32,000 bases of DNA from Phormidium tenue FACHB-1050 (GCF_014696925.1 NZ_JACJQY010000037.1:1-32000); one strand, 5' to 3'; positions 1-31,090 are shown, counted from the first letter of the stretch. Translations and numbers: made by a program. The notes: a model not told the origin generated them from the sequence alone.

Positions 1-145
1 TCTCTGTCTCAAGTTCTTCGCTGTAATAACCCAAAATTATTCCTTTTCTTTCTTTGTCTGAGATTATCCTAATTTGCACAAGTTATTTGTTTTTCATTCC
101 TAAGCAGTTAGGTCAAAATAATACTCAGAATAACAATTTCACTCT

Positions 146-466
146 ATGACCACAAAAGTATGTGATTTGATTGACCAATATCTCATCGTCTTGGAAAAAA
201 GTGACACTGGGTTTTCAGCATATTCGCCTGATGTGGCGGGTTGTATCGCTACGGGAGAGACTTTAGAAGATACGACAAAATTAATGCGATCGGCTTTGGT
301 TTTGCATCTTGCGGATGTCGATGAGTTGCCAAAACCACGTGGGATTGATGCTTATGTAGATGCTTTGCGCGATTCTGAAGGTGAGGAGTTTTATTTAACT
401 CATATTTCTGTGGCGAGTTTGATTGCTAATTCGCAAGAGGTGAGTTGTGAGCAATCCCGAAATTAA
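146..466 (+). CDS. HicB-fold (UPF0150-like) antitoxin-domain protein, no DNA-binding tail, no cognate HicA
   Basis: 106-aa ORF. YLIVLEKSDTGFSAYSPDVAGCIATGETLEDT...LHL...ELPKPR matches the HicB N-terminal domain pattern. Its last 20 nt overlap the next ORF. Confidence 0.7.
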   Translation: MTTKVCDLIDQYLIVLEKSDTGFSAYSPDVAGCIATGETLEDTTKLMRSALVLHLADVDELPKPRGIDAYVDALRDSEGEEFYLTHISVASLIANSQEVSCEQSRN

Positions 467-2786
467 CATCGGTCAAGACGGGTCGAGTAATACGCAGAAT
501 AATACGTTCAATTTTGCAGCGTCAAAAGTAAATCCGCCGATTCCTGATAATGTGCCGATCGCTTCGCCGAACTTTGTGGGACGGGTGAAAGAACTTGAGG
601 AAATTCATGCCAAGTTGCAAGGGGGGCAAGGGGTGAGTGTCTGTGCGGTGGAGGGGATGGGCGGACTGGGCAAAAGCGAACTGGCTTTGCAATATGCCAA
701 ACGCTATCGACAGGAATATGCGGCGCGGTATTGGTTTTTGTTGCGGGGTGTGGGTTTGGCGCAGTCGGTGGTGACTATGGCGAGTCGCTATCTGGATTTG
801 CCTGAAGTGATGCAGTCCCAAACCGTTGAGGCGCAAGCGGAATGGTATTGGCAAAACTGGATACCGACTGAGGGGAAGGTGTTGGTAATTTTTGATGATG
901 TCACCGATCTGGCGAGTATTCCTAAGCAAGCTAGACCGTTGGCAGAACGCTTTCAGGTTTTGGTGACGACCCGCAAGCGTAAGTTGAGTTCGCAGTTTGC
1001 GGATATTCCTTTGGATGTGATTTCTGAGGCTGAGGCTTTGGAATTGTTGAGGAAGTTGTTAGGCAAATCGCGGGTGGATCGTGAGGAGATTGCCGCTAAA
1101 GCAATTTGTGAATATTTGGGTTATCTTCCCTTGGGTGTGGAGTTGGCGGGACGATATTTGCAACTTGATGAGGATCTGTCGCTGAGGGATTATCAACAAC
1201 GCTTGACTATTGCCGATGAGTCGTTAGATTTGCAAGAGACAGAAGAAATTAATGCGACGAGGGGAGTGATTGCGGCGTTTGAGTTGAGTTGGCAGGAGTT
1301 GAGCGCGAGTACGGTCAAGGTGGCGATGTTGTTGGGGTTGTTTGCTCCTGCGTATATGGTTTGGGGTTTGGTGGAAGAGGTAACAGCGCAATTGATCGAT
1401 GAGGGGGATCTGCATGAGGGGAGAAAGCAGCTTAATAATTTGTATCTAATCAAGGCGATCGATCAGGAGCGAACTCGTTTTGCATTACATCCTTTGGTGC
1501 GCGAGTTTTTTCGTTATAAACTTGTGATTTCCGATTCGATAACAAAACAGAATATTTATTACTTAGTTCTTGGAATAATCAAATATGATGTTGTATTAGC
1601 AAAATCACTTGTTGTTTCCGAACTTGAGAAATTTAATCCCTTTTTTGATAACTCTATAAAATCAATAGACTATGCAAGATTAATTAGAGAATCTAGGAGG
1701 TCATGGTATGAGGGTTTTGGTGTTTTAGCGCAGATGATTGGAATTACAAGCCCTGACGGATCTTTGCCCAAGATAGGATCATACATATACAACTCAGATG
1801 AAGCTACAGAGTCCAAAAACATTTTATATGCAGACTATTATGGCGAGGAATACGACGAATACTTTGAACTTCCAGAAGAAATTTTCATTCTTCACAGCCA
1901 AAAGTTATTTAATATCCTATTTGAAGAAAAGGGATTCACTTCTTTTACTACATCTTCTGGGAATAAGAACTTTAATATTCCGCTAGTGTCAGAATATAAA
2001 AAGTTAAGCGAAAAACTGTCTAAGATCATTGGGAATGATTGCTCATTACCTACTAACAACTCTGCTTTAATAAAGGAATCTGGCTGGTATGCTGCATATT
2101 TTCTCTCTGGTAAATATCCACTTAATTATTTTCCTAGAGCAATACCAGTTATTGAGATCAAAAGATGCCTTAGCATAGATTCTCAATGGAGTAGTGCAGT
2201 TAGTAGCTACGAACGCACTTGTCTTCAAATTGTCTTTGAAAGCCTAACATTAAATGATGTAGATGAGTTTGTTTATCCTTGGAATAGTAGATATAGTCAA
2301 GATCCACAAGAGATATTGAATTTTGTAACTACTGTTTATCAAGAATCCTTATCTGCATATCAAGATATTGTAGAAAGATGGTTTGGCAATTTTACCAGAT
2401 ACCTTCAAACCCTAAATATGTTTCCTATCACGATAGAAGGTGTTGTTATAACTTCTCCAGATGGGAGGTATTCTCTTGATTGGTACTGGATACCCTTAAA
2501 AGAAGGAAATTCAAATCGTGTAATATTTAATCTAGCAAAAGCTCCAATGACTGAAAATGAGATTAGTATTTTATTGAACAATGCCAGAGAAAATAGAGAT
2601 CAATTAGCCTCAAAAAGTCCAATTACTAAGGAGGATACTAATATTTTATTCTCTCATTATCATTATAAAAGCTCAAATCTTTTTACGCCAAAATTTCCTG
2701 TTACACATATTGTTTATGGCTGGTTATGGAATGACTTAGAAAAACTTAACTTGGTGTCTGGACGTTTTGATCCGCATATTTGGTAA
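447..2786 (+). CDS. STAND NTPase: NB-ARC module (aa ~45-355) fused to a ~420-aa AT-rich C-terminal domain of unknown family
   Basis: 779-aa ORF with a GTG start shortly after AAGAGG. Walker A GMGGLGKSELA, Walker B VLVIFDDV, GLPL-type GYLPLGVELAG, LHPLVREF at the MHD position. The C-terminal half has no motif I recognise but stays open through stop-rich AT DNA. Confidence 0.8.
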   Translation: MSNPEINIGQDGSSNTQNNTFNFAASKVNPPIPDNVPIASPNFVGRVKELEEIHAKLQGGQGVSVCAVEGMGGLGKSELALQYAKRYRQEYAARYWFLLRGVGLAQSVVTMASRYLDLPEVMQSQTVEAQAEWYWQNWIPTEGKVLVIFDDVTDLASIPKQARPLAERFQVLVTTRKRKLSSQFADIPLDVISEAEALELLRKLLGKSRVDREEIAAKAICEYLGYLPLGVELAGRYLQLDEDLSLRDYQQRLTIADESLDLQETEEINATRGVIAAFELSWQELSASTVKVAMLLGLFAPAYMVWGLVEEVTAQLIDEGDLHEGRKQLNNLYLIKAIDQERTRFALHPLVREFFRYKLVISDSITKQNIYYLVLGIIKYDVVLAKSLVVSELEKFNPFFDNSIKSIDYARLIRESRRSWYEGFGVLAQMIGITSPDGSLPKIGSYIYNSDEATESKNILYADYYGEEYDEYFELPEEIFILHSQKLFNILFEEKGFTSFTTSSGNKNFNIPLVSEYKKLSEKLSKIIGNDCSLPTNNSALIKESGWYAAYFLSGKYPLNYFPRAIPVIEIKRCLSIDSQWSSAVSSYERTCLQIVFESLTLNDVDEFVYPWNSRYSQDPQEILNFVTTVYQESLSAYQDIVERWFGNFTRYLQTLNMFPITIEGVVITSPDGRYSLDWYWIPLKEGNSNRVIFNLAKAPMTENEISILLNNARENRDQLASKSPITKEDTNILFSHYHYKSSNLFTPKFPVTHIVYGWLWNDLEKLNLVSGRFDPHIW

Positions 2787-2798
2787 ACGTAGACTATA

Positions 2799-3133
2799 TG
2801 GCAAGGCAGATATGAAGAAGCAGAAATGTACTATCTAGCAGCTTTGCAGTTGAGGCAAGAACTGTTGGCGATCGCCATCCCCATGTCGCGATCAGTCTCA
2901 ACAACCTCGCATTGCTGTACTATTTGCAAGGCAGATATGAAGAAGCAGAACCTCTGTATCAAGATGCTTTAGCAATTTTGATGTCAACCGTTGGCGAAAA
3001 TCATCCCTATATGCAGAGTGTAATGAGTGCGTTGATCATGCTGAAGTTGCAAGCGATTACAGGTTTAAATGCTGCTGCTTTAGAACAAATGATTAAAAAT
3101 AATCCTGATAAAATAATGCAAATGCTTCAATAA
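2799..3133 (+). pseudogene. Frameshifted TPR_12-type repeat fragment, probable remnant of the original STAND C-terminus
   Basis: 2799-2867 reads WQGRYEEAEMYYLAALQLRQELL in the same frame as the upstream ORF. One missing G at 2867-2868 shifts it to GDRHPHVAISLNNLALLYYLQGRYEEAEPLYQDALAI... (frame of ORF 2912-3133). There is no start codon or RBS of its own. Confidence 0.7.
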
Positions 3134-3143
3134 ATGATGTCTG

Positions 3144-3362
3144 ATGGCTAAAAAAATTAGAGAACTAAAAGCAATGCTTTTAAAAGCTGGCTTCACCTAT
3201 CGTTCTGGTAAAGGTAGCCACACCGTCTGGAGTCATCCTAAACTAGAATATAGCCTTACCCTATCAGGCAAAGACGGCAACGATGCCGATCGCTACCAAG
3301 AAAAAGACGTAAGAAACGCACTGCGAGATATTGACCAACAAAATGAAGGAGGACAACCATGA
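3144..3362 (+). CDS. hicA: HicA-family mRNA-interferase toxin
   Basis: 72 aa. LLKAGFTYRSGKGSHTVWSHPK is the HicA/YcfA GSH motif context. There is a 4-nt ATGA overlap with the downstream hicB. Confidence 0.85.
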   Translation: MAKKIRELKAMLLKAGFTYRSGKGSHTVWSHPKLEYSLTLSGKDGNDADRYQEKDVRNALRDIDQQNEGGQP

Positions 3363-3586
3363 CTCATAACTACAGCATTTCTATCCAATGGTCAGAAGAA
3401 GACAGCAAATTTGTCGCTCACCTACCCGAATTTGGTCCTTATGCCCATACTCACGGCGACACCTATGCTAAAGCCCTAGAAAATGCTTTGGAAGTTTTGG
3501 AATTACTAATCGAAGACTACACGGCTCGTCACAAACCCTTGCCAACACCACGCATAATCAAAAAATCTGACTTCATTGCAGCTTGA
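3359..3586 (+). CDS. hicB: HicB-family antitoxin
   Basis: 75 aa. WSEEDSKFVAHLPEFGPYAHTHGDTYAKALENALEVLELLIEDY...PLPTP matches the HicB fold pattern. Translationally coupled to hicA. Confidence 0.85.
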   Translation: MTHNYSISIQWSEEDSKFVAHLPEFGPYAHTHGDTYAKALENALEVLELLIEDYTARHKPLPTPRIIKKSDFIAA

Positions 3587-3694: not shown

Positions 3695-3904
3695 ATGTAT
3701 CAAGTTACTGTTGATTATGCCAAAAAGAACCTTGATGAACTATGCGATCGGGCTACAAAAGAATCTGAAGGTGTAGGAATAGTTAGAGAAAATCGCAGCT
3801 ATATTTTGATTGCCCAAGAAGAATGGGAATCACTTATGGAAACCGCGATGATTATGCAACCTCCTAATATTCTGCAACAAATCGAAATAGCAAGGCAAGA
3901 ATAA
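3695..3904 (+). CDS. Phd/YefM-type antitoxin, apparently orphan
   Basis: 69 aa. N-terminal VTVDYAKKNLDELCDRA...ILIAQEEWESLMET resembles the Phd/YefM antitoxin pattern. No toxin ORF follows. Confidence 0.55.
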   Translation: MYQVTVDYAKKNLDELCDRATKESEGVGIVRENRSYILIAQEEWESLMETAMIMQPPNILQQIEIARQE

Positions 3905-3988: not shown

Positions 3989-4399
3989 TTACTGAATCTG
4001 TAAAGTAAATTCTTGTATCACTCTATCGCTAGCAGAATAATAGCTAACATGACTACCAGCAATCCTTATCATCTTTCCCATCCGCTTTGCTTTTATATTA
4101 AACTCAGGGTGACGCAAGAGATTTCTGAGTAGAAGAGAGATTTCTGAAGCTCGCGAATCTGGCAAATTAAAGCAGACTATACAAAAATATTCACTTATTG
4201 CTACCTTTCGCCAAAAATCCCGCTCATTGATAGTGATAAAGGTAGGCTGCGCCTCTTTTCGCAACAACATAGGGATCGCTTCATCTTTGATAATCGAATT
4301 AGGGCGTAAATCCGTAATAAAGCAAACATTACCCTGATACCATTTGCCGATCGCCTGTTCCAGATTCGCTCCTAAAAGCTGTTCATCAAGGACAATCAT
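3989..4399 (-). CDS. PIN-like (DUF5615-type) putative toxin
   Basis: 136 aa. MIVLDEQL...ITDL...IKDEAIPMLL...TFITINERDF follows the DUF5615/Mut7-C-like pattern. There is a 4-nt overlap with the upstream DUF433 gene, the usual partner. Confidence 0.5.
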   Translation of the reverse strand: MIVLDEQLLGANLEQAIGKWYQGNVCFITDLRPNSIIKDEAIPMLLRKEAQPTFITINERDFWRKVAISEYFCIVCFNLPDSRASEISLLLRNLLRHPEFNIKAKRMGKMIRIAGSHVSYYSASDRVIQEFTLQIQ

Positions 4400-4701
4400 G
4401 CTGCGCTCAAAATAGGAAGACTCTCAATAAAATGAGTTGTCACAACTTGAATCGCCTCCGCGATCGCCTCACGGGAAACCCTTCCCCGAAAACCAAGCAC
4501 AATATTTTCAACATTCTCACCCTTAGCTAATCGCTCCATCACACCCGCAATCTCAATCCGAGTGTACTTAAAAGTTGGGCGATCGCCACAAACTCCCATA
4601 GCCCGAACAACATACTGCCCTAGCGGATAATAGCTATAGGATTCGCCATTAATTATTTCAGTGACAAGCGATCGCATATAAACTTTTTCATCCAATATCA
4701 A
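4396..4701 (-). CDS. DUF433-family antitoxin-like protein
   Basis: 101 aa. GVCGDRPTFKYTRIEIAGVMERLAKGENVENIVLGF..VSREAIAEAIQ matches the DUF433 core pattern. Confidence 0.65.
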   Translation of the reverse strand: MILDEKVYMRSLVTEIINGESYSYYPLGQYVVRAMGVCGDRPTFKYTRIEIAGVMERLAKGENVENIVLGFRGRVSREAIAEAIQVVTTHFIESLPILSAA

Positions 4702-4880: not shown

Positions 4881-5096
4881 GATCGCTGAATTGGTGTTCT
4901 ATCGTGAAAAGTATCCGATTACAATTCACTTTCGTAAATCATGAGATAGAGTCCAATAGATTTGAAGAACTAGCGATCGCCACATCTAGTTTTATTACTA
5001 CCGCAATCACTGCATAATAGAGATAAAACCAGTGAAGATAATCCTGCAAGTTAAGTGGATTGTCTTGGTTACACAGAGCAAGTAATTGAGTTAGCA

Positions 5097-6092
5097 ATGC
5101 ATTTTATTGATCGAGTTACGATACATGTCAAGTCTGGTAATGGTGGCGATGGGCTAGTTGCATTTCGCCGCGAGAAATATGTGCCTGCGGGTGGCCCTGC
5201 GGGTGGTAATGGTGGCAATGGTGGCTCGGTGATCTTACAAGCAACAACCGATCTGCAAACCCTTCTAGACTTTCGCTTCGAGAATATTTTTAAGGCTGAA
5301 GATGGTGAACGTGGTGGTCCTAGCAATATGACGGGTCGCAAGGGTAGCGATCGCGTGATCAAAGTCCCTGTCGGTACAGTGGTGATGAATGAAGAAACAG
5401 GTGAGGTTTTAGGCGATCTCACCGAGGTCGATCAAACTTTGTTTGTGGCAAAAGGCGGCAAAGGCGGATTGGGCAATAAATACTTTTTGAGCAATCAAAA
5501 TCGCGCCCCTGACTATGCTTTACCTGGATTACCTGGGGAAGAACTTAATCTTTATTTAGAACTAAAATTAATTGCCGAAGTCGGGATCATTGGCTTACCA
5601 AATGCGGGTAAATCGACATTGATCTCTGTTGTATCGGCAGCTCGTCCCAAAATTGCTGATTATCCCTTCACCACGCTTGTCCCCAATTTGGGTGTCGTTT
5701 CTAAGCCGTCAGGTGATGGGATTGTATTTGCGGATATTCCAGGATTAATCGAAGGTGCATCTGAGGGTATTGGCTTGGGGCATGACTTTTTGCGCCATGT
5801 GGAACGCACAAAACTATTAATTCATTTGATTGATGTCACTCAAGATGATCCCCTAGCGGCTTATCACACCATTCAAGAAGAGCTAGATGCCTATGGTCAT
5901 GGCTTAGCTGATAAACCACAAATTCTGGCTCTGAATAAAATTGATGCTATGTTGCCTGAAGATGTGGAGGCGATCGCCTCACAGTTCGATCTACCGATTC
6001 TCGCCATTTCGGCGGCTTCCAAAAAGGGGCTAGATCAACTTTTGAAATCAGTCTGGAAAACCTTAGAGAAATTCGATCAGCAAAATCCATAA
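5097..6092 (+). CDS. obg: GTPase Obg/CgtA
   Basis: MHFIDRVTIHVKSGNGGDGLVAFRREKY Obg fold, then G1 GLPNAGKST, G3 DIPGLIEGAS, G4 NKID. ATG at 5097 preferred over the GTG at 5055. Confidence 0.95.
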   Translation: MHFIDRVTIHVKSGNGGDGLVAFRREKYVPAGGPAGGNGGNGGSVILQATTDLQTLLDFRFENIFKAEDGERGGPSNMTGRKGSDRVIKVPVGTVVMNEETGEVLGDLTEVDQTLFVAKGGKGGLGNKYFLSNQNRAPDYALPGLPGEELNLYLELKLIAEVGIIGLPNAGKSTLISVVSAARPKIADYPFTTLVPNLGVVSKPSGDGIVFADIPGLIEGASEGIGLGHDFLRHVERTKLLIHLIDVTQDDPLAAYHTIQEELDAYGHGLADKPQILALNKIDAMLPEDVEAIASQFDLPILAISAASKKGLDQLLKSVWKTLEKFDQQNP

Positions 6093-6666: not shown

Positions 6667-7515
6667 CTACTTTTTGATCGGCGCGATCGCATCTTGGCTA
6701 ATCTGACAAATTTCATGATGACAATGCCCGTTACTCGCCACGATCGTTCCCCACTGGCGCAATTCGAGATTGTTGTAAGACAGCAATGACAAATCAGAAT
6801 GGGTAAGTTGTCCACCAGCCTCAGTCAGAATAATTTCAGGAGCGCAATAGTCCCAATCCTTAGGCGCAGACTTCCCTGAAACAGAGATATAGACATCCGC
6901 ATTACCTGAGGCGATCGCCGCAAATTTACCGCCAATGCTACCAACCGCAATTTCGGCAGCCTTAGGTAATTGTTGGAGAATACTTTCTAGTTGATAATTG
7001 CGATGGCTACGACTTGCCACTACCACCATTTGATTGAGATCGACTTTATTAGAAACTTGGATACGTTGCTGTAAACCATCTCTAGTCTCGATATATGCCC
7101 CATTGCCTAACATGCCTTGAAAAAGACGATCCTGAGCAGGAGTAGCCACGAGTCCTAGGACAGGACGTTGGCGATAGGTCAAGCCAATATGCACCGCAAA
7201 CTCATTAGTCCGCCGAATAAAGTCACTCGTGCCATCCATCGGATCAATGATCCACACCCATTCATGCTCAAGGCGATCAATATTATCTTCAGTTTCTTCG
7301 CTGAGATAGGCAAAGTTGTCAGTACCAAATGATTGCTTTAACTGACTCAAGATGAAATCATTAGCCGCCAAATCTGCGGAAGTCACATTGCCCTCTTCGC
7401 CCCCCTTAAACATAATTTCTAAGTCTTGAGGCTCCTGATAGTACTTCATCAGAATATCCCCTGCCCCCCAAGCGATCGGGCGAGCCAGCGACATAATTTC
7501 GTTTAAATTCAGCAT
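6667..7515 (-). CDS. Inositol-monophosphatase-family protein, CysQ-like 3'(2'),5'-bisphosphate nucleotidase
   Basis: LSEETED and WIIDPMDGT metal-binding motifs. 282 aa. Confidence 0.8.
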   Translation of the reverse strand: MLNLNEIMSLARPIAWGAGDILMKYYQEPQDLEIMFKGGEEGNVTSADLAANDFILSQLKQSFGTDNFAYLSEETEDNIDRLEHEWVWIIDPMDGTSDFIRRTNEFAVHIGLTYRQRPVLGLVATPAQDRLFQGMLGNGAYIETRDGLQQRIQVSNKVDLNQMVVVASRSHRNYQLESILQQLPKAAEIAVGSIGGKFAAIASGNADVYISVSGKSAPKDWDYCAPEIILTEAGGQLTHSDLSLLSYNNLELRQWGTIVASNGHCHHEICQISQDAIAPIKK

Positions 7516-7660
7516 CTTGAATTTTGGTGAAGCGAATGATTGCTTCTATTCTGTAACCAAAAGCCAAAAAGAAGCAAGTAGGTAAAGCCCACTTGCTCCT
7601 TTTTATATACTCTTTGTCTAAGCAAGAATTAGTGGTGCGGCGCTTTGCGCCGCCATTATC

Positions 7661-7693
7661 TAGAAAACTGGGTGCTTTGCACCCAGTTTTCTA
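7661..7693 (-). terminator. Intrinsic terminator downstream of smtA
   Basis: TAGAAAACTGGGTGC-TTTG-CACCCAGTTTTCTA hairpin 13 nt past the smtA stop. Confidence 0.6.
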
Positions 7694-7705
7694 TGTCGAT
7701 AAAAT

Positions 7706-24412: not shown

Positions 24413-27400
24413 ATGGCATCTAGTTTTATCGTCAACAAAGCAGACCTCGAAAAAATCCTGTTTCAAATCAAGATCGCTGAGGATAGCTCCATCGGCTACC
24501 AGTCAGTGTCGGAAACTAAGACAATTCTTCAGTCGATCATGGATGCGTATGGTATTTCCGCCGCCAATGCAGCGCAGTTGCCTGCTGGTCTACGCACCGT
24601 CGATGGCACCTTCAACAGCCTCATCCCAGGGCGGAGCACGATCGGTGCGGCAGACACGCTATTTCCTCGCTTGACCGATCCAGTGTTCGTTAATGATGCT
24701 GATGGCGACCAGATGTCGTTTGGAGTTCCAAATGCGCCAGTCATCACAAATAATAACTACGATCCCCGCCTTAGTAGTACAAACCCACCTGAAGTCAATC
24801 CAGCTAGTGTTGCTGATGCCGATCCGCGCATTATTTCCAATTTGATCTCGGACATGTCTGTCAACAACCCAGCCGCGATCGATGCTTACTTTAATAACCC
24901 GTTGTCCCTCGCTCAGTTTGAAGCAGATCATCCCGGCATGATTCCAGTCAAGCCAGGCGATCTTCGGGCAGGAACTGGTAATTACCTTGCTATTACCAAT
25001 GCCGACCTCCAAACAATCCCCAACCAGTCCCCCGACATCGGGTTATCGTCTGGTTTCAACTCTTGGATGACCATCTTCGGTCAATTCTTCGACCACGGGC
25101 TCGATCTCGTTACCAAAGGCGGCAACGGCACAGTATATATTCCACTACAGGAGGACGATCCCCTGGTTGCAGGCAAAGATGGGCTCTTTAACACCGCCGA
25201 CGATCTCCCGCCGCAGCTCCGATTCATGGCGCTGACCCGCGCGACAACAACGATTGTGGATGGTGTTCCGCAGCACGAGAACAAGACAACCTCATGGATC
25301 GACCAGAACCAAACCTACACCTCTCATGCCTCGCATCAAGTGTTCCTGCGCGAATACAAGAGAGTCCCTGATCAGATAACCAACGCACCCGTAACGATCG
25401 CAACTGGTAAAGTACTTGATGGTTCGCTTGCAGGTTCGGTCTCTAACTGGGGTGAAGTCAAGGCGAATGCTAAGACCTATTTGGGCATCATCCTCAGTGA
25501 TTTCGATGTCCACAACGTGCCACTGCTACTGACTGATCAATACGGTAAATTCATTCCAGGAGCCAATGGCTATGCTCAAGTAGCCACTACCACTGGCTTT
25601 GTTGAGGGAACAGCAGCAGGCTTGGTTCTGCCTGCCAACACAGTTCGCACTAACCACGCATTCCTCGATGACATTGCCCACCATGCAGTACCTGGATTCT
25701 ATAGAAACAGTTCAGGAGATCTAGTCCCACAAACTGCGGACACAGATCCTGGTGTCGGCGACGATAACGATGCTACGACCTACGACGATGAAATGTTGAA
25801 CTCACATTTCATCACGGGTGACGGACGCGGCAACGAGAACATTGCGCTGACCGCAGTTCACTCCATCTTCCACTCCGAGCACAATCGTCTTGTCGAAGCA
25901 AATAAAGCAACCATTCTTGCGTCGAACGATCTGGATTTCCTAAATGAGTGGTTGCGAATTGACGTTACGGCAGTTCCGACCGCACCCAGTGATATTGCGG
26001 CTTTGGAATGGGATGGCGAACGCCTGTTTCAGGCAGCTCGATTCACCAATGAAATGCAATACCAGCATTTAGTGTTTGAAGAATTCGCACGCCGCATTCA
26101 GCCGATGATCGATCCTTTCGTCTTCAACAACAGCCCCGACATCGACCCATCAATCGTGGCGGAGTTTGCCCACACGGTGTATCGCTTCGGACATTCGATG
26201 CTAACTGGCACAGTTGATCGCTTAGAGAACGACCTGACGACCGTCAACGGAGAACCTGATCAGAAGACATTGCTGGCAGCGTTTCTTAACCCACAGGCCT
26301 ACATCGCCAGCGGAGCGGATATAGCAACCATCAACGCCAACCTAGTCCGAGGCTTGACCCGTGACGTAGGCAGCGGGATCGACGAGTTCATCGTGGACGA
26401 CTTGCGCAGCAATCTCTTGGGACTGCCGCTCGACCTTGGTGCGCTCAACATTGCCCGTGGTCGTGAAACTGGCGTTCCCTCGCTCAATGAAACCCGCAGG
26501 CAACTCTACGAAGGCACTGGCTTAGCTGACCTCAAGCCCTACACCAGCTGGGTTGATTTTTCCTTGAACATCAAAAACCAGCTCTCGGTTATCAACTTCA
26601 TCGCGGCTTACGGTACACATACGAGCATCACCTCACAATCAACCGTTGCTGGCAAACGGGCGGCAGCAGAGGAACTCGTCTTCGGTACAGAGGCTGACGG
26701 TATTACACCTTCGGACATAACTGATCGCCTCGACTTCCTGAACGCCACAGGCGCTTATGCTGGTGGCGATTTGGGTGGACTCAATCTGGTCGATTTCTGG
26801 ATCGGCGGGCTTGCCGAAGCGAATCCCGAATTCGGCGGCATGTTGGGTAGTACCTTCAACTTTGTGTTTGAATCCCAGATGGAGAACCTGCAAAACGGCG
26901 ATCGTTTCTACTATCTGAGCCGTACTCAGGGCATGAACTTGCTCAACCAGCTAGAGCCAAATACCTTCGCCGACATGGTGATGCGCAACACCGCGCTCGG
27001 CGACAAGTATGCGACCCATTTAAATGGATTTCTGTTCGTCACACCAGACTATATCCTCGAGCTAGATCGGGGCATTGCACAGGAAGACTATAACGGGACT
27101 GCCGCTGGCAAGGATCCGCTTGGAGGCACTCTCTTTAATCCCAAAGTTCAGCGCGACTACACAGGCAGCAGCATCGTCGATGGAAACCACGATTTCGGCG
27201 GTACTCTAAGGTTTACTGGTGGCGAACATGTTGTGATCGGCGGTACTGAAGGTAACGACAAACTATACAGCGACAAGGGTGACGATACCCTATGGGGCGA
27301 TGGTGGCAATGACTACATCAATGGTGGCGCTGGTGCTGACAACGTCTTCGGCGGCGAAGGCGACGACATTATCGAAGATCCATTTGGGGATGATATGTTG

Positions 27401-30400
27401 CGTGGTGAACAGGGCAACGATGTCATCACCAGTTCCCGTGGCTTGGATCTGATATTTGGTGACCAAGGTACCGACTATATCGTACTAGGTCAGGATGGTA
27501 GCGAAGTCTTCGCAGGTGCTGACGACGACTTCGTCCTTGGTGGTACTGGCGGCGACTTTCTGCTAGGCAATGAGGGCAGCGACTGGATCGAAGGCGGAGC
27601 TGGCTTCGACACACTGGCGGGTGACAACTCGGAACTGTTCTTCAACAGCCCGATCCTCGGTCATGATGTGTTATTCGGTCAGGGCGACGAAACCGACTAC
27701 GACGCAGAATCAGGCGACGATATCATGGGTTCTGGCGCGAGTGTCTACCGCTATGAAGGGATGTTCGGCTTTGACTGGGGCATTGCTAAGTACGACAACT
27801 CGCCCATTAAGTTCGACCTGAATTTCAATCTCGCTGCTCTCGGCACTCCGAACGATGTCTTACGCGATCGCTTTGATAACGTGGAAGCATTATCAGGTTG
27901 GAGGAATAATGACGAACTGTTTGGCGACGATCGCGGTCATGTTGCAGGTGCATCTCCCATCGCTTTCGATCCCGTCACCGCAGACCAACTGTTCTTCAGC
28001 ACTTTGCCGTTGGCTAATGCTCCTGCTGGGGCGATCGATGTATTGTTCAACAACTTGCTAACCAATGAGGGTGTTGATCGGATCACTGGCTTCAGAACTT
28101 GGTTTGGCGGCGCAGCAGTTACGCTCAACACCGTGGCTGGTACTGGCGCTGGCGACACATTCTTCCGCGATGGCAATATCCTTATGGGTGGCGACGGCAA
28201 CGATATCATCAAGGGACGTGGTGGTTTCGACATCATTGATGGCGATGCTTGGTTGAACGTGCGGATTAAAATCGACATCAACGGCACGATCTACTCGGCT
28301 GATTCGATGAGCAATGATACTACCGTTATGGGGCAATATGCTGGCAAGGTCTTTAACACCAACTCAGACGGCAGCCCAAATTACAGCAGTCCAGCCTTTG
28401 GCGGTGCATCGCTCACATCGTTGCTGCTAAACCGAACCATCAATCCTGGTCAGATGACCATCGTCCGTGAGATCTTGACCGACAATACCGACCTCACGGG
28501 TCTTAACAAAAACATCGACACCGCCGTCTTCCAAGGCAACTTCGCAGAATATGAAATTGAGGGCTTTAATACGCTCGGTCGGGCAACTGATGTCAATGGT
28601 GATGGTTTCATCTATGTCCGCGATCTCGACAATGGTGTCACCCGTCCTCCTGTTGTTGATCCGCTAACGGGCGTTGCTAGGATAGTCTCTGACGACACCG
28701 ATCTGATCAAGAACATCGAGCAGCTCCAGTTCGCCGATGTGACCATCCGTCTTGATGTTGTAGCGCCAACCGACATTCAGTTTAATGGTGTCACTCCAGC
28801 AGCAGGAAATGCATTTCCGCTTGCAGGTACGACGATCGCAACCCTGAGTACGACGGATGCCAATACGACCACGGGATTTGACTACTCGTTGTTGGTTGCG
28901 GGTAGCAGCGCTGGCTTTGCGGTAAGTCAGACAGGTGTTGTTACTGCCACAGCCAATATGGTTGGAAATCAGATCTACACACTTAACATCAGATCTACAA
29001 ATACAACAACAGGCGCTTTCCGCATTGAAACCTTTGAGATCAGAACTGGTGGTAATGGCGGAGGCGCTGATGCACTCACCGTAAATCCAGCGACCAACTT
29101 TGACAACATCATGTATGGCAATGCTGGCAACGACACGCTCAACGGTGGCACTCGCAACGACACCCTGTTCGGTCAGGATGGCAACGACACGCTCAACGGC
29201 GGCGATGGCAATGACACCTTGAACGGTGGTGCTGGTGTTGACAACCTGAACGGTGGCGCTGGCAACGACATATTGGTTGGTGGCGCTGGCAACGACATTG
29301 TAAACGGTGGTGCTGGCAACGACACAATCCGCTATACGGTCGATGCTGATCGTACCGACACGATCGATGGTGGTGCCGACAACGATACGCTGGTACTCAC
29401 TGGACGCGCTGGCACTCTCAACGAAAACCTTGCCGTGACATTCGACGGAACTGCCCTCAATGCGGTTGAAGGTGGCTCTGTGTCCAACGTTGAGTCTGTA
29501 ACCGTAGATCTGGGCGATGGCATCGATACTTTGACCTACGTCACTATCTCTGGAGTGCCAGTAGGAGTTACGGTTGATCTCGCTAATGGAACTGCGTCGG
29601 GATTCACCTCGGTCGCTAACATCGAGAACGTGACGGGTAACGGCGGAGCCGACAACATTACGGGCGATGCTAACAACAACGTCCTGAGCGGTGGTGGCAA
29701 CAACGACATCATCAGCGGTGGTGCTGGTAATGACACGATTAATGGCGGTATTGGCACTGACACAGTCGTAGAATCTGGCGATTTCAACTTTGTCCTGACT
29801 AATAACCAACTGACAGGCAACGGTACTGATACCCTAATCAGTATCGAACAGGCTATCTTGACTGGTGGTTCTGGCAACAATACCTTTAACGTATCTGGTT
29901 TCGGCGGTACAGTCACGATTAATGGAGGTGATGGCACTGACACATTAATAGATTCAGGGAATGTTAACTTTGTCTTGTCCGACACTACCCTAACGGGCAA
30001 CGGTACTGACACGCTAACTTCCATCGAACTGGCTACTTTGACAGGCGGTGGTGGCAACAACACCATTAACGCATCTGGTTTCAGCGGTGCTGTCACCCTC
30101 AACGGTGCTGGTGGCAACGATACCTTGACGGGTGGCAATGGCGCTGACACCCTCATCGGTGGTACTGGCAATGACTCTGTCATCGGTGGCACAGGCAACG
30201 ACACAATTCGCTATACGGTCGATGCGGACGGAACCGACACGGTAAATGGTGATGCCGACAGCGATACGCTGGTGCTCACTTCCAACGGCGGCAACCAAAA
30301 CCTCACCGTAACATTCAACGGAACCTCAATCACCAACTTTGAAGGCGGAACAGTTACCAACGTCGAGTTTATAACTGCTGATCTGGGTGCTGGTGCTGGT

Positions 30401-31090
30401 GATACCCTGACCTACAATGCGCCAGGCGGTGTCACAGTCAATCTATCTACTGGAACTGCATCTGGGTTCATCTCAAGCGCATCTGGGTTGCCTGCGATCG
30501 CCAACATTGAGAACGTGACCAGTAATGGTGGCATCGACAGCCTGTTTGGCGATCTCAATGCCAACGTGTTGAATAGTGGTGGTGCCGACGACACAATCGA
30601 CGGCGCGGGCGGAAACGACACGATAAACGGCGGTCTGGGTGCTGACAGACTTACAGGCGGTTTGGGTGTTGATACTTTCGTCTTTCAGTTTGGTCAGTCT
30701 CAGGTGAACCTCGGATTCGATAGAATTACCGACTTTACTTTTGGTACTGATAGAATTGATTTGCTCACAGGTGGAGGAAATGCCACTTCTGCTCCCCTTA
30801 GCTTTAGTCGTGCGGCTGACAATAGCACTGCATCGACCTTGCAGCTTCTTGCTCAGTCAGTCTTTAACGATGCTAACGGTTTGCTTGCAGGGAACCAAGC
30901 ATTGGCAGCCAACAGTGCTGCCATTGTAAGCACCACAGCAGCAAGTGCGCTTGGAGTTGGAACTTACCTCATTATTAACGATGGTACTGCTGGATTCAAT
31001 ACTAATAACGATCTGTTTATTAATATCACTGGATACCAAGGCGCACTCCCCGGACTAGGCACAATCACACCAAATAGTGTCTTTGCTTAG
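24413..31090 (+). CDS. Giant animal-heme-peroxidase / RTX Ca-binding repeat protein (peroxicin, MopA-like), probable T1SS substrate
   Basis: 2225 aa. Distal-His block FGQFFDHGLDL, proximal-His block AVHSIFHSEHNRL, LDLGALNIARGRETGVPSLNE. Several GGxGxDxL nonapeptide blocks, a cadherin/Ig-like segment and a non-repeat C-terminal tail. No N-terminal signal peptide. Confidence 0.92.
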   Translation: MASSFIVNKADLEKILFQIKIAEDSSIGYQSVSETKTILQSIMDAYGISAANAAQLPAGLRTVDGTFNSLIPGRSTIGAADTLFPRLTDPVFVNDADGDQMSFGVPNAPVITNNNYDPRLSSTNPPEVNPASVADADPRIISNLISDMSVNNPAAIDAYFNNPLSLAQFEADHPGMIPVKPGDLRAGTGNYLAITNADLQTIPNQSPDIGLSSGFNSWMTIFGQFFDHGLDLVTKGGNGTVYIPLQEDDPLVAGKDGLFNTADDLPPQLRFMALTRATTTIVDGVPQHENKTTSWIDQNQTYTSHASHQVFLREYKRVPDQITNAPVTIATGKVLDGSLAGSVSNWGEVKANAKTYLGIILSDFDVHNVPLLLTDQYGKFIPGANGYAQVATTTGFVEGTAAGLVLPANTVRTNHAFLDDIAHHAVPGFYRNSSGDLVPQTADTDPGVGDDNDATTYDDEMLNSHFITGDGRGNENIALTAVHSIFHSEHNRLVEANKATILASNDLDFLNEWLRIDVTAVPTAPSDIAALEWDGERLFQAARFTNEMQYQHLVFEEFARRIQPMIDPFVFNNSPDIDPSIVAEFAHTVYRFGHSMLTGTVDRLENDLTTVNGEPDQKTLLAAFLNPQAYIASGADIATINANLVRGLTRDVGSGIDEFIVDDLRSNLLGLPLDLGALNIARGRETGVPSLNETRRQLYEGTGLADLKPYTSWVDFSLNIKNQLSVINFIAAYGTHTSITSQSTVAGKRAAAEELVFGTEADGITPSDITDRLDFLNATGAYAGGDLGGLNLVDFWIGGLAEANPEFGGMLGSTFNFVFESQMENLQNGDRFYYLSRTQGMNLLNQLEPNTFADMVMRNTALGDKYATHLNGFLFVTPDYILELDRGIAQEDYNGTAAGKDPLGGTLFNPKVQRDYTGSSIVDGNHDFGGTLRFTGGEHVVIGGTEGNDKLYSDKGDDTLWGDGGNDYINGGAGADNVFGGEGDDIIEDPFGDDMLRGEQGNDVITSSRGLDLIFGDQGTDYIVLGQDGSEVFAGADDDFVLGGTGGDFLLGNEGSDWIEGGAGFDTLAGDNSELFFNSPILGHDVLFGQGDETDYDAESGDDIMGSGASVYRYEGMFGFDWGIAKYDNSPIKFDLNFNLAALGTPNDVLRDRFDNVEALSGWRNNDELFGDDRGHVAGASPIAFDPVTADQLFFSTLPLANAPAGAIDVLFNNLLTNEGVDRITGFRTWFGGAAVTLNTVAGTGAGDTFFRDGNILMGGDGNDIIKGRGGFDIIDGDAWLNVRIKIDINGTIYSADSMSNDTTVMGQYAGKVFNTNSDGSPNYSSPAFGGASLTSLLLNRTINPGQMTIVREILTDNTDLTGLNKNIDTAVFQGNFAEYEIEGFNTLGRATDVNGDGFIYVRDLDNGVTRPPVVDPLTGVARIVSDDTDLIKNIEQLQFADVTIRLDVVAPTDIQFNGVTPAAGNAFPLAGTTIATLSTTDANTTTGFDYSLLVAGSSAGFAVSQTGVVTATANMVGNQIYTLNIRSTNTTTGAFRIETFEIRTGGNGGGADALTVNPATNFDNIMYGNAGNDTLNGGTRNDTLFGQDGNDTLNGGDGNDTLNGGAGVDNLNGGAGNDILVGGAGNDIVNGGAGNDTIRYTVDADRTDTIDGGADNDTLVLTGRAGTLNENLAVTFDGTALNAVEGGSVSNVESVTVDLGDGIDTLTYVTISGVPVGVTVDLANGTASGFTSVANIENVTGNGGADNITGDANNNVLSGGGNNDIISGGAGNDTINGGIGTDTVVESGDFNFVLTNNQLTGNGTDTLISIEQAILTGGSGNNTFNVSGFGGTVTINGGDGTDTLIDSGNVNFVLSDTTLTGNGTDTLTSIELATLTGGGGNNTINASGFSGAVTLNGAGGNDTLTGGNGADTLIGGTGNDSVIGGTGNDTIRYTVDADGTDTVNGDADSDTLVLTSNGGNQNLTVTFNGTSITNFEGGTVTNVEFITADLGAGAGDTLTYNAPGGVTVNLSTGTASGFISSASGLPAIANIENVTSNGGIDSLFGDLNANVLNSGGADDTIDGAGGNDTINGGLGADRLTGGLGVDTFVFQFGQSQVNLGFDRITDFTFGTDRIDLLTGGGNATSAPLSFSRAADNSTASTLQLLAQSVFNDANGLLAGNQALAANSAAIVSTTAASALGVGTYLIINDGTAGFNTNNDLFINITGYQGALPGLGTITPNSVFA

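Follow-up and report, generated by a model that had tools for sequence, protein, structure and literature searches.

A chimeric NLR-like gene of Phormidium tenue joins an NB-ARC module to a putative sensor of an unnamed STAND-associated domain family

How a gene that opens as a conventional NB-ARC nucleoside triphosphatase (NTPase) came to end in a long AT-rich stretch, with the remains of TPR repeats left behind its stop codon, and what that AT-rich part does for the protein, are the questions raised by a 32,000-nucleotide stretch of Phormidium tenue FACHB-1050 DNA (NZ_JACJQY010000037.1:1-32000; the whole of this stretch is called the window here). The gene in question (447..2786, plus strand) encodes 779 aa between a GTG start and a TAA stop at 2784-2786, and it is chimeric: most of its NB-ARC module belongs with uninterrupted NB-ARC-TPR genes, while its last winged-helix helix and its C-terminal domain of ~420 aa belong with a different set of NLR-like genes. 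The C-terminal domain, hereafter the module, is coding and is a member of a family that lies behind the NTPases of STAND proteins (signal-transduction ATPases), where it probably acts as a sensor. The product of the gene is likely to be an NLR-like STAND receptor in the NB-ARC (AP-ATPase) class, one with an exchanged sensor arm.

The first half of the protein is unambiguous. A preliminary description of the locus, made from the sequence alone, had read four NB-ARC motifs in residues 1-355 (GMGGLGKSELA, VLVIFDDV, GYLPLGVELAG and LHPLVREF), and all four are present in the translation of the open reading frame (ORF), with Walker A (GMGGLGKS) at aa 70-77 and Walker B (VLVIFDDV) at aa 145-152. In alignment A5, G73, G75, K76 and H348 are invariant and D150 and D151 nearly so, and Pfam NB-ARC (PF00931) matches aa 48-240 with an E value of 3.5e-13 (49.8 bits against a cut-off of 23.5). 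The Walker motifs, the profile score, the ARC1 region and a winged helix that includes the conserved His (MHD-like) helix are together the features of the NB-ARC class of STAND NTPases. The full-length structure model (pLDDT 78.5) consists of a disordered N-terminus (aa 1-30, pLDDT 30-34), a standard NB-ARC with a helical bundle at 194-258, a wing hairpin at 335-347, strand E344-347 and helix H349-361, and the module after the winged helix. Its Foldseek neighbours are Apaf-1, tomato NRC1/2/3 and CED-4 (E 1e-9 to 1e-7, probability 1.0), which share Walker A, Walker B, the ARC1 bundle and the winged helix with its conserved His helix; the similarity is limited to this nucleotide-binding and oligomerisation module (NOD), whereas the N- and C-terminal arms are unrelated. 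Two parts of a canonical tripartite NLR are missing from the chain, since Pfam and the model place only ~45 disordered residues before NB-ARC, with no effector in cis, and no repeat family (LRR, TPR or WD40) was matched in aa 356-779, the TPR units lying outside the ORF. The receptor protein is 100% identical to P0123, a protein that occurs on 24 contigs.

The boundary between the two halves is marked by composition. The GC content goes from about 0.49 to 0.30. In 200-nt windows it is 0.46-0.555 over 501-1500 and only 0.285 at 1501-1700, with values of 0.29-0.39 from there to 2800, and third codon positions change likewise, their GC (GC3) being 0.54 for the NB-ARC part and 0.26 for the module, so that the fall first noticed near 1520 is borne out by computation. 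The NB-ARC part (447-1456) is itself unusually rich when its GC3 of 0.54 is set against that of the Obg housekeeping gene (5055-6092; 0.38) and the whole-window mean GC of 0.44, so that both the GC-richness of the backbone and the AT-richness of the sensor contribute to the break.

That the module is likely to be coding had also been proposed, and it is. Through DNA of 32% GC run 424 open codons (aa 356-779), opposite-strand ORFs in the same interval reaching 58 aa at most. A related cyanobacterial lineage with the same architecture (P0001, loci L001-L007, with XisH/XisI, MEKHLA and DUF4079 genes among its neighbours) is 91.7% identical to the window in DNA over 540-2911, and the 1272-nt module carries no indel between the window and L001 at 8% divergence. 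Its dN/dS is 0.44 against L001, 0.32 against L010 and 0.36 against L012, two further loci described below, with a synonymous excess significant at p 6e-4 to 1e-12. Because there are no indels and dN/dS lies at 0.32-0.44 with a significant synonymous excess, the AT-rich part is a constrained coding domain and read-through junk is excluded. The alternative of an accidental open frame in foreign DNA, as read-through junk or a young pseudogene, that became attached to a truncated NB-ARC gene, and for which the sharp composition break, the TPR fragments stranded downstream and the mere three or four close relatives returned by word-index search might speak, is extremely improbable in the face of 424 codons open at 32% GC, an indel-free alignment, dN/dS of 0.3-0.44 (p to 1e-12), 135 distant homologue clusters aligned end to end and a confident predicted fold.

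The origin of each half can be followed by alignment. Uninterrupted NB-ARC-TPR relatives, predicted by the preliminary description as the ancestral type, were found: three proteins (P0004, P0005 and P0006) are 84-89% identical to the first 365 aa of the receptor and 85-91% identical in the NB-ARC part, and the recipient-derived NB-ARC module (576..1456, plus strand; P-loop NTPase, helical ARC1 and most of the winged-helix domain, delimited by Pfam, DNA identity and Foldseek) shares 88-92% DNA identity with L008 and L009, whose NB-ARC-TPR genes are uninterrupted. Homology to L008 and L009 ends at 1474 and 1483 and resumes only in the TPR tail; homology to L010 spans 1497 to 2819. In a three-way alignment the window follows the TPR-type paralogues to ~1457 and from ~1500 is identical to L010 and L011, which sets the left recombination zone at 1457..1499 (plus strand; aa ~338-351), between the wing beta-hairpin and the last winged-helix helix. 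The composition break (~1520) thus lies slightly 3' of the true junction.

The donor-derived part (1500..2783, plus strand) comprises that last winged-helix helix (REFFRYKL) and the ~420-aa alpha/beta C-terminal domain, as judged from family membership, the AlphaFold2 model, dN/dS and GC3. In NB-ARC members of the module family the domain is immediately preceded by LH(E/P)LIREFFxxKL, so that LHPLVREFFRYKL in the window came from the donor as well. The donor was thus another NB-ARC NLR-like gene: a sensor was swapped, and the left crossover was a homologous recombination between two NLR-like genes inside the conserved winged helix. The idea of a foreign cassette put forward for this locus accordingly needs revision: replacement by compositionally foreign coding DNA did occur, but the incoming DNA is a piece of a second receptor gene and not an unrelated insertion.

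The right junction (2787..2800, plus strand) is illegitimate. It holds a second in-frame stop, TAG at 2790-2792, differs from L001 by an 11-nt indel, and is shared by L001, L010, L011 and the window. Beyond it lies the orphaned tail of the ancestral TPR sensor (2799..3133, plus strand), about two TPR_10/12 units with the native C-terminus, not fused to the main ORF. Here the earlier account holds in detail: WQGRYEEAEMYYLAALQLRQELL reads from 2799 in the frame of the receptor ORF, after both stops, and the single missing base placed near 2867 is a 1-nt deletion at 2866/2867 (a gap at 2866 in the alignment with L001) that shifts the rest of the TPR text to another frame through 3133. The ORF at 2912-3133 matches TPR_10 (E 4.9e-8) and TPR_12 in Pfam, the tail DNA is 82-84% identical to the TPR repeats of L009, and L001 keeps the tail as an uninterrupted ORF of 96 aa in a different frame. 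No convincing terminator or promoter was found between the module and the tail, nor any second copy of the receptor gene or the module in the 32-kb window.

The same domain and the same right junction are found in L010 and L011 on a second backbone only 55% identical to that of the window, which argues that the sensor moved between backbones more than once. For the proteins P0257 and P0258 the figures are 55% identity in the NB-ARC part and 71% in the module; P0257 compared with L012 gives 64% identity for the NB-ARC parts and 58% for the modules. All four Pseudanabaena-type genes display a break in GC3 (0.46-0.55 against 0.24-0.26), while L012, from a cyanobacterial metagenome-assembled genome of 36% GC, is uniformly low (0.26 and 0.21), as expected of a native NB-ARC-plus-module gene. 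These alignments indicate a single initial replacement and, after it, one or more additional exchanges at that boundary, of either backbone or sensor; the swap is older than the split of the window lineage from L001. Of the TPR sequence, L010 and L011 keep no more than ~50 nt, in decayed form.

The course of events would then be as follows. A Pseudanabaena-type NB-ARC-TPR gene would have recombined with a second NB-ARC NLR-like gene, whose last winged-helix helix and ~420-aa domain replaced some 130-170 codons, corresponding by comparison with L009 to the linker after the winged-helix domain and the first TPR units; the right junction would have brought in the donor stop codon, stranding the TPR tail that is now decaying. 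This account of how the chimera arose is held with high confidence. As a separate observation, the window over ~1500-1650 is 100% identical to L010 and L011, genes that are otherwise 60-85% identical to it, compared with 92% to the closer relative L001, a pattern suggestive of recent gene conversion at the sensor boundary, whether among receptor paralogues or among strains.

An insertion by a mobile element within the TPR gene, whether an insertion sequence (IS), a homing-endonuclease gene, an intron ORF or an intein, would account for an apparently in-frame segment of foreign composition inside a host gene, and IS activity is documented in this gene family (L013). Yet there are no border repeats or target duplications, neither terminal inverted repeats nor target-site duplications being found at 1457-1499 or 2787-2800, and Pfam, NCBIfam and PHROGs returned no transposase, reverse transcriptase, endonuclease or intein signature. 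Furthermore, the host gene is partly deleted and not duplicated, the left junction falls within sequence homologous between donor and recipient, and the homologues of the module are always C-terminal domains of STAND proteins, none being found in phages. A mobile element is consequently a very improbable source, and exchange between two receptor genes is the explanation retained. The IS just mentioned lies at 4814-5965 of L013 (Pseudanabaena sp. Salubria-1, JALQCR010000025.1), where a P0001-type receptor is split after about module residue 172 by an insertion with a 383-aa transposase-like ORF; that allele is thereby inactivated.

What the module is became apparent only from an exhaustive search. 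Word-index searches had given only 3-7 relatives, and it took an exhaustive HMMER scan of 1.84 billion representative proteins (E<=1e-3; clusters at 50% identity) to expose a family of at least 135 cluster representatives. Nearly all 135 align end to end with positions 1 to ~420 of a profile built from the first matches, at the extreme C-terminus of proteins of 700-1100 aa. When 53 full-length members were scanned against Pfam for partner domains, the central domain was NB-ARC in 14 and NACHT, AAA_16 or NPHP3_N in ~10-13, and the N-terminal domains were DUF4062 (7), Trypsin_2 (3), SMEK_N, PNP_UDP_1, CHAT and Metallophos (2 each), with caspase, TIR_2, SEFIR, DUF4365, EAD10, NNH5 and DUF676 seen once each. 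This is the typical repertoire of NLR-like conflict systems, dominated by death and immune effectors, and the module stands C-terminally behind the STAND NTPases that carry them. The named members are all cyanobacterial (Anabaena sphaerica, Coleofasciculus and Trichocoleus) and are annotated solely by their N-terminal or central domains.

By tblastn the C-terminal half of the domain was also located on a Nostoc plasmid, adjoining caspase, CHAT and NACHT genes, and on a group of Rhodococcus plasmids, where a Shedu gene lies ~2 kb away. On one of the latter, the mobilizable plasmid pR85A of Rhodococcus erythropolis (L020, 3903-5534), the 543-aa hypothetical protein WP_205908036.1 carries the C-terminal ~165 aa of the module ~2 kb from Shedu (SduA), and its presence on Rhodococcus plasmids extends the domain outside the cyanobacteria. 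The phage search returned no homologues. The module has no significant family in Pfam, NCBIfam, PADLOC or PHROGs, and neither a profile search of PDB sequences nor Foldseek against the PDB (entries to April 2026) and BFVD returned a relative or an analogue, the best structural matches having E 0.1-0.2 and TM ~0.1. The preliminary description, which recognised no motif in this part, is borne out in that no named family or solved analogue was found, but the domain is no orphan, being attached to NB-ARC or NACHT in a family of at least 135 clusters. By its sequence relationships it is best regarded as a member of an unnamed STAND-associated C-terminal domain family and a putative sensor.

The AlphaFold2 model of the module, built on a 30-sequence alignment, is confident (mean pLDDT 85.6, pTM 0.87) and predicts a mixed alpha/beta, non-repeat fold in which long helices pack against two sheets of three to four strands. 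One loop of low confidence, module residues 366-390, coincides with a 14-aa indel in P0257/P0258 and with a short internal direct repeat. The latter consists of 40 nt, 75% identical, at window positions 2536-2575 and 2611-2650, encoding KAPMTENEISILL and KSPITKEDTNILF; the region is likewise of low confidence in the full-length model (protein aa 721-745), P0257 and P0258 carry their 14-aa deletion there, and it is probably a variable surface loop. An internal duplication of the module, suggested by its secondary-structure pattern, was rejected on an hhalign probability of 0.4% between the two halves.

The preliminary description had left it open whether the module is a novel sensor or a novel effector. 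If the C-terminal domain were the effector, a toxin or an enzyme, NB-ARC would be triggered through the N-terminal motif or a partner, and the lack of an N-terminal effector domain in this protein and a fold without a solved analogue are compatible with that. Faint Foldseek matches to RNase-H-like folds (EndoV and transposase cores) might be added, as might a weak CdiA_C match (E 0.05); the former were not accepted at a probability of at most 0.2 and TM ~0.1, and the latter, with a DUF5846 match, was rejected as noise, all structural matches having E>0.1. Against an effector, relatives combine the domain with bona fide N-terminal effectors (caspase, trypsin, CHAT, TIR, phosphorylase and phosphoesterase), and the domain occupies the position of the TPR, WD40 or LRR sensor in STAND proteins, having physically replaced a TPR array here. 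Conservation points the same way. In alignment A2, with the window sequence as reference row, W192, P305, W404 and L405 are conserved and W65, W108, W158, Y283, Y402, D408 and W414 near-invariant, all of them present in the window. Invariant and near-invariant positions are mostly Trp, Pro, Gly, Tyr, Phe and Leu, the only conserved acidic residues being E189 and D408, both nearly invariant, with no catalytic constellation, and this aromatic and structural pattern favours a binding scaffold over an enzyme. Because its relatives have their enzymatic effectors at the N-terminus, the module is far more likely to be a sensor than an effector, and the effector half of the original alternative is quite unlikely.

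If the module senses, an effector must be sought elsewhere, and sibling strains offer a candidate. The window matches L014 from nt 101 (7655 in L014) at 98.5% identity, nt 1-100 being unrelated sequence of which no copy was found elsewhere in the window or in the compared loci and for which exact-pattern scans of metagenome contigs were empty. Five sibling loci (L014-L018) encode an identical receptor protein in DNA that is 98.5% identical, and carry upstream of the HicB-like gene an intact small partner gene, which in L014 is a 144-aa ORF (7269-7703) ending in ISIGKQVNVKQLGQNNTQNNNFTL. In the window only the 3' remnant of this gene is left (104..149, plus strand; the last 15 codons, QLGQNNTQNNNFTL, and the stop), the gene being cut at nt 100/101. 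The partner may be Bell-like, in that its N-termini MADPLTLTAGAIANLAF and MSDPITASLLVGLAV resemble HeLo/Hell/Bell N-termini, and we treat it as a candidate member of that group.

The partner and the receptor share a motif. The disordered, Q/N/G-rich N-terminus of the receptor contains PEINIGQDGSSNTQNNTFNF (aa 4-23; 456..515, plus strand), a candidate amyloid signalling motif recognised from the model pLDDT and local alignment. The tail of the L014 effector aligns locally with the receptor N-terminus of the same locus at a score of 54, compared with at most 35 for receptors of other loci, and in L012 the pair is closer still, with effector tail NSTMTQNNSDNARGLQVKVDGVTNYIGEIH and receptor N-terminus NNTMNQNNSGNAQGVQIEVKGGTAYIGVNH scoring 93 and cross-locus comparisons at most 40. 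A short disordered N-terminal extension (~45 aa, in a range of 10-150 aa) and a motif similar to the C-terminus of the neighbouring gene product are the marks of BASS/Bell-NLR pairs, and in sibling strains the receptor's effector would thus be supplied in trans by the upstream Bell-like candidate with its matching amyloid-type motif. That no effector is present, as first reported, is correct only in cis, given this candidate in the siblings. Since the partner gene is truncated in this strain, the system may be disabled here. In L001 (5914-6000) and L013 (3174-3260) only LNSSESGARTKLNSPKTIPDN, without an ATG, precedes NB-ARC, and the 148-aa Bell-like protein encoded upstream keeps its own C-terminal motif.

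BASS Bell-NLR pairs are defined by a short motif that a small helical protein carries at its C-terminus and the NB-ARC or NACHT protein encoded next to it carries at its N-terminus (Dyrka et al. 2020, bioRxiv 10.1101/2020.01.06.895854), and the Bell-related pair Bab/Agp provides abortive-infection phage defence in E. coli via amyloid templating (Ibarlosa et al. 2024, bioRxiv 10.1101/2024.11.07.622273). By analogy, the C-terminal domain of the receptor would bind a trigger, most likely a phage protein or another non-self protein, and binding would lift the autoinhibition of NB-ARC and allow nucleotide-dependent oligomerisation. The disordered N-terminal Q/N-rich motifs clustered in this way would template the matching C-terminal motif of the small upstream-encoded Bell-like protein, which would then cause membrane damage and cell death. 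This functional account, in its sensing, its amyloid mechanism and its anti-phage or cell-death output, draws on STAND/NLR and BASS biology and is modestly favoured. The broader proposition is offered more tentatively and falls somewhat short of probable: that the ~420-aa domain constitutes an undescribed class of non-repeat alpha/beta NLR sensor, found mainly in filamentous cyanobacteria with outliers on actinobacterial plasmids and responding to a phage or non-self trigger, that the boundary between winged helix and sensor is a recombination hotspot through which such sensors pass from one NB-ARC backbone to another, and that signalling to a Bell-like executioner is of the amyloid type.

Several observations weigh against these readings. 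The dN/dS of the module against L001 is higher than that of the NB-ARC part (0.44 and 0.28, respectively), and the ~50-nt TPR remnant of L010 and L011, taken alone, is not significant against shuffled sequences. Motif pairing is weaker in L010 and L011, where the L011 effector tail even scores higher with the L010 receptor than with its own. The L001 receptor is without the N-terminal motif, the effector is truncated in the window, and the module of the Salubria-1 gene is interrupted by an IS. For the partner, nothing significant was found in Pfam, whose library has no Bell model, and the PDB sequence search was empty. Recurrent losses like those of the motif, the effector and the module in this gene set are typical of costly immune or cell-death genes.

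Alternatively, the protein might be one of the regulatory STANDs outside immunity, with a link to defence or cell death that is coincidental, and act as a signal-transduction ATPase controlling some cellular process. Many STAND clades are non-defence according to Lee et al. 2026 (PMC13581612). PADLOC gives no match, which also counts against the immune interpretation, and the best partial matches in NCBIfam are to the NB-ARC regions of FxSxx_TPR, AfsR and HaaT-type proteins, all below cut-off; that to FxSxx_TPR (NF040586) scores 125.9 bits against a cut-off of 300 and covers only profile positions 1-325 of 830. However, neither a DNA-binding domain nor any other output domain is present in the protein, death and immune effectors dominate the N-termini of the module family, an amyloid-type motif is matched in the small upstream protein, and the neighbouring genes are toxin-antitoxin or defence genes. 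A purely regulatory role is unlikely, and an immune or cell-death receptor remains the preferred interpretation.

Such a receptor resembles several known systems without coinciding with any. With BASS Bell-NLR pairs it has in common the short disordered extension before NB-ARC, the motif common to the C-terminus of an upstream small protein, and a filamentous cyanobacterial host, and, at 85-91% identity, its recipient backbone is close to ordinary NB-ARC-TPR proteins of BASS type. Unlike in those pairs, the sensor is a ~420-aa non-repeat alpha/beta domain and not TPR or WD40, an antitoxin-like gene stands between the effector and receptor genes, and the partner is truncated in the window and Bell-like by candidate status only.

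Avs (antiviral STAND) proteins were reportedly described by Gao et al. in 2022 as pattern-recognition receptors, and an Avs-like nature had been suggested for the present protein. The two are alike in combining a STAND NTPase with a large C-terminal sensor, and in that sensors are common across NTPase clades and combined with varied effectors. Most Avs sensors, in contrast, are TPR-like alpha-solenoids where the module is mixed alpha/beta and non-repeat, and the protein has no effector in cis; moreover, PADLOC-DB 2.0 yielded no family at E<=1 with either the whole protein or the module, its Avs/AVAST hidden Markov models included, so the protein belongs to none of the Avs families modelled there. 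Lee et al. 2026 (PMC13581612) sort the sensors of at least 400 aa of defence STANDs into 684 clusters, most of them TPR-like and some spread across many clades, and the module domain may be one of these 684. Sensor exchange among STAND clades and the diversity of C-terminal sensors are in themselves already established.

Fungal and plant NLRs undergo combinatorial shuffling around a central NOD, with sensor and effector swaps and integrated domains. The present case is alike in having one central NOD with different sensors and a breakpoint at the domain boundary after the winged helix; it is unlike in that a scar is kept, the frameshifted tail of the old sensor behind the new stop, and in that a second backbone bears the same sensor and scar. 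Recombination of sensors, NTPases and effectors is the presumed route by which bacterial NLR-like receptors diversify. Cases with a preserved scar are rare, and here the breakpoint is placed within ~40 nt inside the winged-helix domain, with the same sensor on two backbones that are 55% identical. What is new is this non-repeat alpha/beta family, with no Pfam entry or PDB analogue, its association with a BASS-type arrangement, and a swap with a scar and a mapped breakpoint. Amyloid-signalling NLR pairs of BASS type would thereby be extended to a sensor that is neither TPR nor WD40, and a sensor family of at least 135 clusters with a confident predicted fold is suited to trigger screens. Current models are not overturned; the locus adds a clean example and a sensor family. 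Should the domain prove to be the undescribed sensor class tentatively proposed above, the locus would document in nature both the state before and the state after a sensor was replaced in a bacterial NLR of the amyloid-signalling kind.

The genes around the receptor include the toxin-antitoxin islet that the preliminary description had recognised, confirmed for the HicB-like gene by Pfam and for the remainder by the annotation of the near-identical locus L014. The HicB-like antitoxin-family ORF (146..466, plus strand; 106 aa; Pfam HicB_lk_antitox E 3.2e-8, 34.2 bits against a cut-off of 27) sits between the effector remnant and the receptor gene and overlaps both, in the same arrangement as in L014-L018. 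Downstream, the L014 annotation places HicA at 3144-3362, a second HicB-like ORF at 3359-3586, a Phd/YefM antitoxin at 3695-3904 and, on the minus strand, a DUF433 ORF at 4396-4701 followed by a 136-aa ORF at 3989-4399.

Antitoxin or toxin-antitoxin-type genes (HicB-like, DUF29, and MNT with HepT) recur directly upstream of these NLR-like genes and overlap them, at 146-466 in the window, 227-424 in L008, 827-1258 in L009, 3404-3835 in L010 and 213-879 in L011, and wherever a Bell-like gene is present they stand between it and the receptor. This slot may be an insertion hotspot, or the small genes may regulate the system. Farther along the window, at 24413-31090 on the plus strand, lies a very long ORF of 2225 aa.

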